From a virus (lineage: Duplodnaviria; Caudoviricetes): a stretch of DNA of 61,396 bases. The notes beneath the pieces are model-generated. The model saw only the letters and a program-made list of their open reading frames with translations. It did not search any database and had not been told where the DNA came from. Numbering within the stretch: position 1 is the stretch's first letter; the number at the start of each line of letters is the position of its first letter. Of this stretch, positions 8,146 to 35,717 are shown piece after piece. The stretch covers positions 1 through 61,396 of IMG/VR virus record IMGVR_UViG_3300031949_000037. One strand, 5' to 3'. Made by a program: the position numbers and the translations under genes.

Positions 8146-8342
8146 CCGGGGCGCACAACCGCCATCCAGGCCGCGCGGCCTGGGGGAAGGCCATGCGGAA
8201 CCGCCGCTGGCGCCGGCGCTTTCGGCGCTGGGCCTGGGCGTCCGTCCGCCGGCCATGGAGCCTATGGCCCTTCGGCGGTCTGAGGGGAGGACGCGATGGT
8301 CGCTTCTAGCGGGCAGGTCGGTATCTGAAGTGGGCGGCGGCC

Positions 8343-8918
8343 GTGCTCCTATGGTCGTCAGTGGGCGCGGTCCTTGGAACCGCATGCGGAGGCGCCTATC
8401 GACCACCACCTGAGCCCACGGCGGCGGCAGGCCCCGCCTGCATCGCTACGCCGCCTGTGCTATCGGCCGGCGCCCGGATGTGTCTAGGGCATTTCTCCAC
8501 GGCCACCAGCCGCCCGTTAGACATGCCGGCGCCGGCCCCTACCATCCAAGCCCTGGCGGCCGCGCCCGCCACACCCACGATACCCTTTGCCCCGACGGCC
8601 CCTAGCGCCGCGCCGACGACCCTAGGGGCCGCGGCCTTATCCGAGGCCTTCCTGGCCGGCTACGCTGCGGGTGGCGGGCCGCCCGAGCTGGCGCCCCACT
8701 TCACCGACGTCGCGATCCCCTGCGAGTCGGGCTGGCGTACGGACCCGCCCGGCTACCACCTGGGCATGCTGCAGTTCGCCCCCGCCACCTGGCGTAAGGC
8801 GGCCCGCGCCGGCGCCGACTACCGCGACCCGTGGGAGCAAGGCTTCGCGGCTGGCAACTGGATCGGGCCGATGGGCGTCGACCCCGGCAGTAGGGCCGGA
8901 TGGGCCGGCTGCTGGTAA
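8343..8918 (+). CDS. Exported (lipoprotein-like) transglycosylase, Rpf/lysozyme-like fold
   Basis: LGTAC lipobox-like motif, P/A linker, then CESGW..GMLQFAPATW..DPWEQ. Confidence 0.7.
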   Translation: MLLWSSVGAVLGTACGGAYRPPPEPTAAAGPACIATPPVLSAGARMCLGHFSTATSRPLDMPAPAPTIQALAAAPATPTIPFAPTAPSAAPTTLGAAALSEAFLAGYAAGGGPPELAPHFTDVAIPCESGWRTDPPGYHLGMLQFAPATWRKAARAGADYRDPWEQGFAAGNWIGPMGVDPGSRAGWAGCW

Positions 8919-8983
8919 GCCTCCTCTCCTAGCTTCGGCGCCCGAGAATCTCGCGAAATAGCCCCACTTTCTCGCCAAAAGGG

Positions 8984-9000
8984 CTAGCCGCTGCGGCTAG
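8984..9000. promoter_or_regulatory. Operator palindrome
   Basis: CTAGCCG-CTG-CGGCTAG next to AT-rich GATACTATATAT. Confidence 0.75.
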
Positions 9001-9292
9001 TTTGGCCGATACTATATATGGACATAGGACACGCGGCCAGGGGTAGGCCGGACGCGAACAAGCCCCACAGCAAAGGCCCTAACGCCGAGGCGTACGCGAG
9101 CTACACCAGGCGGGGCCGGCCGAGCGGCCGGCCGCCGGACAGCCACTAGGGGCGGGCACGGCAACTAGGCGCGCGGAGGGAACGGGGCCACGACATAGCT
9201 AGGCAGACCGAGAACCGAGAGGAGAGGGTAGGGCTGCCTAAGGGGCCACAAGGAACGTAGGTCGGGGCTTCATTAGCCCTGCAAGCCGCGAA

Positions 9293-9371
9293 GGGCTCCG
9301 CTATAGGGTCTAGGGGCGACCGCCGCCCCTACCGATGAGGCCCCGGCGAGGGCCGAAACCCGAAGGAGCCC
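9293..9371 (+). ncRNA. Type III hammerhead ribozyme (core variant CCGAUGA)
   Basis: GGGUC (site after 9310); stem I UAGGGGCG/CGCCCCUA; core CCGAUGA; stem II GGCCC/GGGCC; GAA-ACCC closing stem III; extension GGGCUCC/GGAGCCC. Confidence 0.8.
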
Positions 9372-9375
9372 TGGA

Positions 9376-9579
9376 ATGGATAGTACCCAACTAAGGCAGG
9401 CTCAGCAGCTTGGGCGCATCTACCGGCGGGTCGTTAGCCTACTTCGCCAGACGACCGAGGCGCCGGGCGGGAGCATGGGATCACAGACAAGGCGCTGTGA
9501 GAAGTGCGCCGGCCCGGTCTTCCTGGCCCTAATCGGCGGCAAGATGCCATGGCTCTACTGCCCGAGATGTGACGGATGA
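9376..9579 (+). CDS. Small Zn-ribbon protein
   Basis: AAGGAG RBS; CEKC..CPRC. Confidence 0.55.
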   Translation: MDSTQLRQAQQLGRIYRRVVSLLRQTTEAPGGSMGSQTRRCEKCAGPVFLALIGGKMPWLYCPRCDG

Positions 9580-9587
9580 AGGCGGCC

Positions 9588-9619
9588 CGCCCCTACGGAT
9601 GAGGCCCCGGCGAGGGCCG
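9588..9619 (+). repeat. Degenerate partial copy of the hammerhead core
   Basis: 31/32 identical to 9324-9355; followed by GTAA instead of GAAA; no stem I 5' arm. Confidence 0.85.
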
Positions 9620-9642
9620 TAAGCCAAAGGAGAGAAGGCATC

Positions 9643-9912
9643 ATGGCAAGCCAGACGGCAGACCTGGCCACGGTAGTCGTCGAGGGGACGATGCGGGCAG
9701 GGGCCCGGTACGTGGCCGAGAAGCACCTGGCGGTAGACTACGCCGCCGTCACGGCCCGGATGCGCGACATCGTACGCGCCGAGTACGACGAGCTGGTGGC
9801 GACCCTGAAGGACGCCCTGGATGGCAACATGGGCGGCCCGATGTACCGCCAGATCATCAACACCTATTGCACGTCCTGGGGGATCAGGGCGGTAGACAAC
9901 AGGGGGAAATGA
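9643..9912 (+). CDS. Hypothetical protein
   Basis: Purine-rich RBS region; high-GC codon pattern. Confidence 0.65.
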   Translation: MASQTADLATVVVEGTMRAGARYVAEKHLAVDYAAVTARMRDIVRAEYDELVATLKDALDGNMGGPMYRQIINTYCTSWGIRAVDNRGK

Positions 9913-35642: not shown

Positions 35643-35717
35643 CGCGGCGTAGAGCAGTGGCAGCTCGTCGGGCCCATAACCCGAAGGTCGAAGGTTCGAA
35701 TCCTTCCGCCGCCACCA
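35643..35717 (+). tRNA. Initiator tRNA-fMet (CAU)
   Basis: Full cloverleaf; C1:C72 mismatch; GGG/CCC in the anticodon stem; TTCGAAT; encoded CCA. Confidence 0.95.

Follow-up and report, generated by a model that had tools for sequence, protein, structure and literature searches.

Hammerhead ribozymes are common in phages. The closest described systems are the type III hammerheads of phages and prophages (Perreault et al., 2011; PMC3088659), some of which are clustered and flank small variable genes. Phage hammerheads with variant cores are reported there to cleave slowly, among them the ribozyme of phage Bcep176 with its A6C substitution, and it was suggested that the slower bacteriophage variants may gain activity under particular conditions. 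The HHphage ribozyme of the haloviruses HF1/HF2 lies 13 nt upstream of a start codon, and a transcript 5' end has been placed within 3 nt of its cleavage site (PMC3088659). Engineered systems have been described as well. Felletti et al. (2016; PMC5052635) cite a synthetic hammerhead that sequesters the Shine-Dalgarno sequence (SD) (Wieland and Hartig, 2008) and describe twister constructs whose open stem carries both the SD and an anti-SD and which give 5- to ~100-fold higher expression when the ribozyme is active. Here we analyse a hammerhead element in a soil virus of the Caudoviricetes (IMG/VR record IMGVR_UViG_3300031949_000037); the window is this complete virus record of 61,396 bp. Sequence analysis confirms the element as a type III hammerhead ribozyme at positions 9306-9361, with a GUC site and a predicted cleavage between C9310 and U9311. 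Our best explanation, held with moderate confidence, is that it is a genuine member of the phage class found upstream of ribosome binding sites (RBSs), that it carries a rare natural U4C core, and that it would cut a conserved leader off an early mRNA.

Anatomy of the element and its relatives

A sequence-only reading of this locus had described a type III hammerhead with three stems, a GUC site and a CCGAUGA core. This description holds base for base, and the covariance model, the homologues, the covariation and the conservation of the core agree with it. Three helices surround one junction, with loops capping stems I and II and with an open stem III, as seen alike in the sequence, in the minimum free energy (MFE) fold and in the model alignment (Table 1). 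U9309 pairs with A9358 (A15.1-U16.1), G9339 pairs with C9354, and the H17 nucleotide at the cleavage site is C9310, not G. Fourteen of the 15 core positions are canonical, the sole departure being C for U4; measured against the C3-A9 core criterion (CUGANGA) the element matches at six of seven positions and departs at position 4. Reading the window sequence in other registers did not supply a U at this position. The unconstrained MFE fold of 9293-9371 is exactly the three-way junction (-43.4 kcal/mol, z -2.41), and the junction remains the MFE fold in a 146-nt context. The reverse strand of 9293-9371 adopts a different fold.

Table 1. Features of the hammerhead locus, in positions of the window (ORF, open reading frame; GC3, G+C content at third codon positions).
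Feature	Position	Strand	Remark
Palindrome GCTAGCCG-CT-GCGGCTAG	8983-9000	+	presumed operator
A/T-rich -10-like box TACTATATAT	9010-9019	+	presumed promoter of the hammerhead transcription unit
Conserved non-coding leader	9020-9292	+	5' of the hammerhead; would-be 5' cleavage product
GGGCUCC, anti-SD (5' strand) of the outer extension of stem III	9293-9299	+	window-specific
5' strand of stem III, GGGU, and C17	9306-9309, 9310	+	U16.1 in GGGU; predicted cut C9310/U9311
Stem I hairpin UAGGGGCG-ACCGC-CGCCCCUA, 8 bp	9311-9318 / 9324-9331	+	sequence, fold
Core strand C3 C4 G5 A6 U7 G8 A9 (CCGAUGA)	9332-9338	+	U4C variant
Stem II GGCCC/GGGCC, loop CGGCGA, G10.1-C11.1	9339-9343 / 9350-9354 (hairpin 9339-9354)	+	sequence, fold, covariance model R1
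G12 A13 A14 A15.1 and 3' strand of stem III, ACCC	GAAA 9355-9358, ACCC 9358-9361	+	sequence, covariance model R1
GGAGCCC, 3' strand of the extension including SD GGAG	9365-9371	+	7 nt before ATG 9376
First ORF, 67 aa, CxxC...CxxC	9376-9579	+	no Pfam family; GC3 0.72
Truncated decayed copy of the hammerhead 3' part and SD	9587-9632	+	supplies the SD of ORF 9643

The motif is not a product of chance. The pattern CYGATGA..GAAA has a single match on the forward strand of the 61-kb genome, none on the reverse strand and none in a backwards control. A descriptor that requires stems I, II and III and allows at most one core mismatch finds one match in the window, compared with none in 100 dinucleotide shuffles. 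In viral contigs, a pattern anchored on GGGTC...CYGATGA...CGAAACCC matched 117 stretches, among them 29 canonical relatives that share the GGGUC...CGAAACCC frame. The strongest test comes from the covariance model R1, which was built from 29 canonical CUGAUGA phage sequences with well formed stems I and II, and its training set holds neither a C4 sequence nor anything of this phage lineage. R1 nevertheless assigns the window element 48.4 bits (E 3.2e-8, all 52 model positions aligned), within the range of 42-68 bits that the canonical members reach themselves. In a model-based alignment of 40 hammerheads, 97.7% of the pair cells are paired and 154 cells are doubly changed, a result that none of 500 shuffles equalled; the double changes fall in 12 of the 15 pairs.

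Relatives of the phage itself were found by two routes, with the SbcC-like protein, which led to three related viral contigs (67-70% amino-acid identity), and with the conserved C-terminus of a 191-aa protein, by which five metagenome loci were found. L002, L004 and L123 carry the hammerhead with no difference between them in the motif, and L125 has a third distinct version. All three distinct versions keep C4 in a CCGAUGA core. They were compared in a model-based alignment, a MAFFT alignment having been set aside because it misplaced a U insertion. This extra U follows A9, before G10.1, in L002 and L125, that is, in two of the three C4 homologues. An extra U at this place is common in the class and occurs in 7 of the 29 canonical sequences (L096, L104, L020, L037, L072, L081, L091; possibly also L052).

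Among the three versions none of the 15 core columns varies, compared with 17 of 42 non-core columns (Fisher p 0.0025). The first pair of stem I is compensatory (U-A versus C-G), as is the second (A-U versus G-C in L002 and A-U in L125), and the outer pair of stem III is G-C versus A-U in L125 (AGGU...ACCU). An invariant core together with compensatory helix changes suggests that selection has held the fold and the core after C4 arose, which is hard to reconcile with a dead relic, small as the sample is. The sequence-only reading had further proposed that the two hairpin loops pair through CCG/CGG. This pairing is possible in the window, but weak: all three homologues have CC in loop 1 and GG in loop 2, while a third Watson-Crick pair is not kept. 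The loops offer CCG/CGG in the window and ACC/GGU in L125, with the third pair on opposite sides of the constant two, and none in L002.

Further searches returned little. Blastn of 8900-9700 against GenBank phages gave no match, and the exact 34-nt hammerhead stretch was not found in the viral contigs. A stem I plus core pattern with Y at position 4 retrieved only the two known contigs from the viral set. The pattern of this lineage (stem I plus core) had four matches in genome contigs, none of them a hammerhead by R1, and no prophage copy or host was found in this way. One added match of the first anchored pattern scan, L007 (= L008), lies in coding DNA and was put down to chance.

A putative early leader and a predicted masking of the Shine-Dalgarno sequence

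The element sits in a genome with 66-69% G+C throughout and with long ORFs mostly on the + strand. It occupies a 457-nt gap between a 191-aa ORF ending at 8918 and a 67-aa ORF (ORF67) starting at 9376; a metallophosphoesterase and an SbcC-like ATPase are encoded farther upstream and a DUF932 protein downstream. The window also holds a tRNA gene at 35643-35714 on the + strand (Rfam RF00005, 63 bits).

Upstream of the element, a CTAGCCG..CGGCTAG palindrome with a -10-like box is common to the window, L002 (7895-7930), L125 (376-410) and L003 (7730-7752). In L002 and L125 the same palindrome is embedded in TTGACA-N17-TAGTAT and TAGTCT, respectively, and L003 keeps the palindrome and has TATACT. 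A consensus scan of the window gave no sigma-70 promoter match, and the TTGACA box is missing there; the promoter is thus proposed from the homologues. The palindrome looks like an operator on the promoter of an early unit. A 27-nt stretch with the palindrome recurs twice more in L002 (96% identity to L125) and may be a repeated regulatory site.

The leader between promoter and hammerhead is better conserved than its surroundings, with 80% nucleotide identity to L002 over 8942-9368 compared with 72% for the flanking coding DNA. Its only ORF (43 aa, 9018-9149) is broken by indels in the alignment with L002, which argues for a non-coding leader. Contigs of three other sediment studies cover 9053-9244, and contigs from four sediment runs hold parts of the leader and stop short of the hammerhead, so that they add no new variants of it. 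The leader had no Rfam match at E<=10. An alifold consensus of three sequences gave a positive, hence penalising, covariation term and no convincing overall structure, and a hairpin at about 9206-9246 has one clear compensatory change, G-C to A-U. A second hairpin, GGCCGGCC-GAGC-GGCCGGCC at about 9113-9132, differs in its loop in L002 and has insertions in a contig from X2. C17 and the 5' strand of stem I (9310-9318) together read CUAGGGGCG, of which a second copy lies 164 nt upstream in the leader (9146-9154); as a rival partner for the 3' strand of stem I this copy was dropped, since it is not conserved in L002.

The position of the element is that of its class. An SD-like motif and a start codon follow within 33 nt after 28 of 34 phage hammerheads, compared with 684 of 6800 random positions from the same loci (10%), although 9 of the 34 come from one sequence family and the count thus overstates independence. 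Processing of an early transcript fits this position ahead of the RBS and the published phage cases (PMC3088659). According to the proposed mechanism, the element would lie in the 5' untranslated region (5' UTR) of an early transcription unit under operator control. Once transcribed, the three-way junction would fold and the RNA would cut itself between C9310 and U9311, probably more slowly than a U4 hammerhead, since the N3-H that the U-turn receives from U4 is missing in C. Cleavage would detach a conserved leader of ~300 nt ending in a 2',3'-cyclic phosphate, which would thus be released as a separate RNA. The downstream mRNA would start with a 5'-OH at 9311 and continue with two stable hairpins, stems I and II; from the new 5' end it would be 55 nt to the SD GGAG (9365) and 65 nt to the start codon (9376). 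Cleavage would uncouple the fate of the mRNA from that of the leader. Decay of bacterial mRNA can depend on the 5' end, and the new end should therefore alter the stability of the message. In this phage alone, cleavage may also help to free the SD.

This last step leads to a second reading, compatible with leader processing, in which cleavage gates translation: the 7-bp helix GGGCUCC/GGAGCCC would mask the SD of ORF 9376, cleavage would leave a duplex of two strands, the 5' strand would leave or be degraded and the SD would be unmasked, with the slow C4 core serving as a delay. The sequence-only reading had proposed this masking, with cleavage either gating translation or processing the early transcript. 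We compared the 20 nt before with the 20 nt after the hammerhead, using 200 shuffles, for 34 phage hammerheads. In the window the flank duplex is predicted at -19.9 kcal/mol, while shuffled flanks average -9.7 and none of 200 is as good (z -3.5), the helix belongs to the MFE fold also in the 146-nt context, and the same design works in synthetic bacterial switches (PMC5052635). The extension moreover makes the hammerhead fold the MFE fold in the window, unlike in L002 and L125, where a competing fold exists. Since the competing fold is removed in the window, the helix may stabilise the active fold as much as it hides the SD. The burial of the SD is real and unusual here, but it is missing in L002, in L125 and across the class. 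Flank pairing is not significant in the homologues (z +1.07 in L002, +0.16 in L125), the mean z of the 34 hammerheads is 0.11 with p<=0.05 in three, and permuting the flanks does not weaken the pairing (-5.8 kcal/mol for true pairs, -6.1 after permutation). Anti-SD/SD pairing as a class-wide trait of phage hammerheads is ruled out by this comparison, and SD masking as a conserved feature of a ribozyme switch, a kind for which there is no established natural family, falls with it, as the pairing is not kept among the homologues. One strong outlier in 34 tests is also not very surprising, and an 11-bp GC-rich duplex, judging from its -19.9 kcal/mol, would not separate unaided after cleavage. Translational gating is thus a possibility for this window alone, and one that we regard as rather unlikely.

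The two readings can be combined into a natural counterpart of the engineered SD-masking switches. Here the slow C4 core would delay the process, or would sense Mg2+ or pH, as a protonated C could replace U4, and cleavage would free a functional leader and then a gene cassette. The order of events would be that the leader is cut off first and that the anti-SD strand leaves afterwards, by which the first exchangeable early-gene cassette would be switched on. We consider such a switch a distinctly improbable proposal, and the joint sequence of steps equally so.

The C4 core and the variable cargo

The substitution of U4 is the feature that bears most directly on activity. A pattern with Y at position 4 has 90 distinct matches in the viral contigs, 33 of them well formed, 29 with U4 and 4 with C4. 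The well formed C4 versions belong to four separate lineages (the L002 lineage, L049, L087 and L093; R1 41.7-48.6 bits), and L087 with C4 is a clear homologue of L063 with U4. With A or G at position 4, the same contigs hold 43 distinct matches, none well formed, and with the essential G5 replaced by A, C or U they hold 17, again none well formed. C4 thus looks specifically tolerated. In vitro U4C is much less active, but it retains enough activity in vivo for the infectivity of a viroid (PMC3088659, citing Ambros and Flores, 1998). As a documented natural variant with activity in vivo, U4C lowers the expected rate of cleavage and does not exclude the element from the class. Most likely, judging from the sequence comparisons and the published variants, the element cleaves, but slowly.

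Several observations weigh against this interpretation. A comprehensive mutagenesis of another type III hammerhead, assayed for co-transcriptional activity, found all single mutants of the CUGA U-turn low except a C:G swap (Roberts et al., 2023; PMC9901934). The element is absent from L003 (no R1 match at E<=1) and from L122 and L124 (no R1 match at E<=10), and must therefore be dispensable; in L003 and L122 hardly anything separates the promoter region from the first ORF. For L002 and L125, an alternative that pairs GGGUC with the 5' strand of stem II is predicted to be more stable than the hammerhead fold, by 4.0 and 7.4 kcal/mol, respectively. With three distinct homologues, the statistics on conservation are thin, and the comparison of variants covers positions 4 and 5 only, hammerheads anchored on GGGUC...CGAAACCC only, and small numbers. 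A search of sequencing runs for the stretch matched no RNA run. Finally, Rfam at E<=10 reports no hammerhead and nothing credible on 9200-9450 (251 nt). The same holds at E<=10 for 8900-9400 with the leader included, and at the gathering score Rfam reports no hammerhead in the whole window, only a tRNA.

The Rfam result had been anticipated as a check by the sequence-only reading, which named the Infernal hammerhead models. There is no match even at E<=10, but the check is uninformative, because a canonical relative also stays below the gathering score: the phage hammerhead of L016 (11741-11800) reaches 38.1 bits, compared with a gathering score of 48.5 for Hammerhead_3. In nine loci, five of them bearing canonical hammerheads, there was no match at gathering level. 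The Rfam gathering threshold thus misses this phage subclass, canonical members included, and the negative result for the window carries little weight.

The low activity of U-turn mutants in vitro (PMC9901934) is also an argument for a catalytically dead relic, in which U4C abolished cleavage and left a structured 5'-UTR module, either decaying or with another role, as hairpins ahead of the RBS or as a protein-binding site. Some hammerhead-like RNAs with core variants are without detectable activity (PMC3088659), and hammerheads do decay in this region, as a copy 264 nt downstream and a remnant in L002 illustrate. The truly decayed copy looks otherwise, however. It has a CGGAUGA core, GUAA for GAAA and GCC for CCC, three changes in or near the core, and it lacks the 5' strand of stem I and the cleavage site; R1 gives it 19.3 bits (E 0.033), and with its altered core and missing 5' half it is not a ribozyme. 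The L002 remnant, at the equivalent place, reaches 8.3 bits by R1. In the three intact versions the rest of the core is invariant while 17 of 42 stem and loop columns changed, with compensation in the stems. A relic would also have to be squared with C4 in four lineages, compared with no A4, G4 or G5 variant with intact stems, and with the activity in vivo reported for U4C (PMC3088659). We therefore consider a dead relic unlikely, and slow cleavage of an early leader remains the reading that we prefer.

The decayed copy is part of a mosaic arrangement. A 46-nt direct repeat brackets ORF67 (9323-9368 and 9587-9632, 91% identical), and a 22-nt stretch, GATGAGG..GGCCG, is identical in both copies, with two matches compared with 0.01 expected. 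A mosaic breakpoint lies exactly at the 3' end of hammerhead and SD, as homology to L002 breaks off at 9368, directly behind the SD, and returns at 9912 (L002 8278/9325). L125 and L002 have the hammerhead and the first codons in common and then diverge. As homology stops just past the SD or start codon, the same ribozyme precedes three different cargo genes, and ORF67, by this comparison, appears as cargo that differs between related phages; it has no relatives in the viral contigs. In L002 the ATG right after the hammerhead opens a frame (8287-8622) with a GC3 of 0.55, and another frame (8300-8620) has a GC3 of 0.86, as expected of a gene, but no early start codon, which points to a frameshift, an assembly error or an unusual start. 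Clusters of two or three type III hammerheads, spaced by 300-800 nt, occur in L116 (2107-2963), L020 (2-873) and L052 (6392-7154), in the gene-flanking order known from published phages (PMC3088659).

These joints allow a role at the level of DNA, in which hammerhead and SD serve as a recombination junction for small early-gene cassettes and RNA activity is secondary. The end of window-L002 homology at 9368 and its return at 9912, the divergence of L125 and L002 behind hammerhead and first codons, the repeat of the hammerhead 3' part around ORF67 and the hammerheads flanking variable genes, both in the published phages (PMC3088659) and in L116, L020 and L052, are in line with it. It leaves the conservation of the catalytic core and the covariation of the RNA helices unexplained. 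In phages, gene borders are regularly the site of mosaic joints, and no special sequence is needed for this. We regard a primarily DNA-level role as highly doubtful. Chance resemblance within a GC-rich intergenic region, for which one could cite the lack of a hammerhead match in Rfam and the modest fold z-score of the 79-nt stretch alone (-2.41), is practically negligible and, as far as sequence analysis reaches, refuted by the empty shuffles (0 in 100), the R1 E-value of 3e-8 and the compensatory changes in homologues, Rfam failing on canonical controls at gathering score too.

Comparison with known systems

Much of what is seen here belongs to an established picture. Type III hammerheads in phages, their clustering at variable genes, core variants and the placement ahead of start codons are already published (PMC3088659), and U4C itself is a known natural viroid variant. 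Modestly new are the fixation of C4 across diverged homologues in a DNA phage with its recurrence in other phage lineages, the finding of no purine-4 or G5 variants where positions 4 and 5 were sampled, and a natural trio of versions that differ in whether an SD-masking helix is present. That a substitution usually deemed crippling is fixed and recurrent suggests that phage mRNA leaders tolerate slow hammerheads, or that selection even favours them there. The three homologous versions, with the same ribozyme, different cargo and in one case an SD-masking helix, form a compact natural test system for asking whether cleavage affects translation or mRNA stability in bacteria. A practical consequence is that the Rfam gathering threshold overlooks a whole phage subclass.

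The window element resembles the phage and prophage type III hammerheads of Perreault et al. (2011; PMC3088659) in its three-helix junction, GUC site, core, G10.1-C11.1 pair and intergenic location. It differs from them in C4; the text of that paper names U4C only for a viroid, and its supplements may list phage cases. The loops of the window element (ACC / GG) also differ from the UGAYGCY / RGCA loops of many of the relatives found. With the viroid hammerhead (via PMC3088659), which is also of type III, it shares both the substitution and its place in the core. The viroid ribozyme, however, belongs to an RNA replicon and cuts multimeric genomes, whereas the window element would act in the mRNA leader of a DNA phage, in a lineage in which, unlike in the viroid case, C4 is fixed across diverged homologues.

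Like the HHphage of HF1/HF2 (PMC3088659), the element is a core-variant hammerhead in a phage early region, and it ends 14 nt before the ATG. HHphage has another core variation, a requirement for high salt, an archaeal host and a mapped transcript end, while the window element is known from its sequence. The synthetic switches (PMC5052635) use a bacterial 5'-UTR ribozyme whose open stem carries SD and anti-SD, as predicted here for 9293-9299 / 9365-9371. They are engineered and their cleavage-dependent expression was measured, whereas the pairing in the window is natural, known from sequence and not conserved in the homologues; by analogy the gating geometry appears mechanistically workable, but rests on one sequence. 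The hammerheads of fungal and plant RNA viruses (PMC13725137) differ more widely, being of type I, in eukaryotic RNA viruses, linked to cap-independent initiation and devoid of SD masking. What they have in common with the element proposed here is self-cleavage in a viral 5' UTR that is tied to translation of the downstream ORF.

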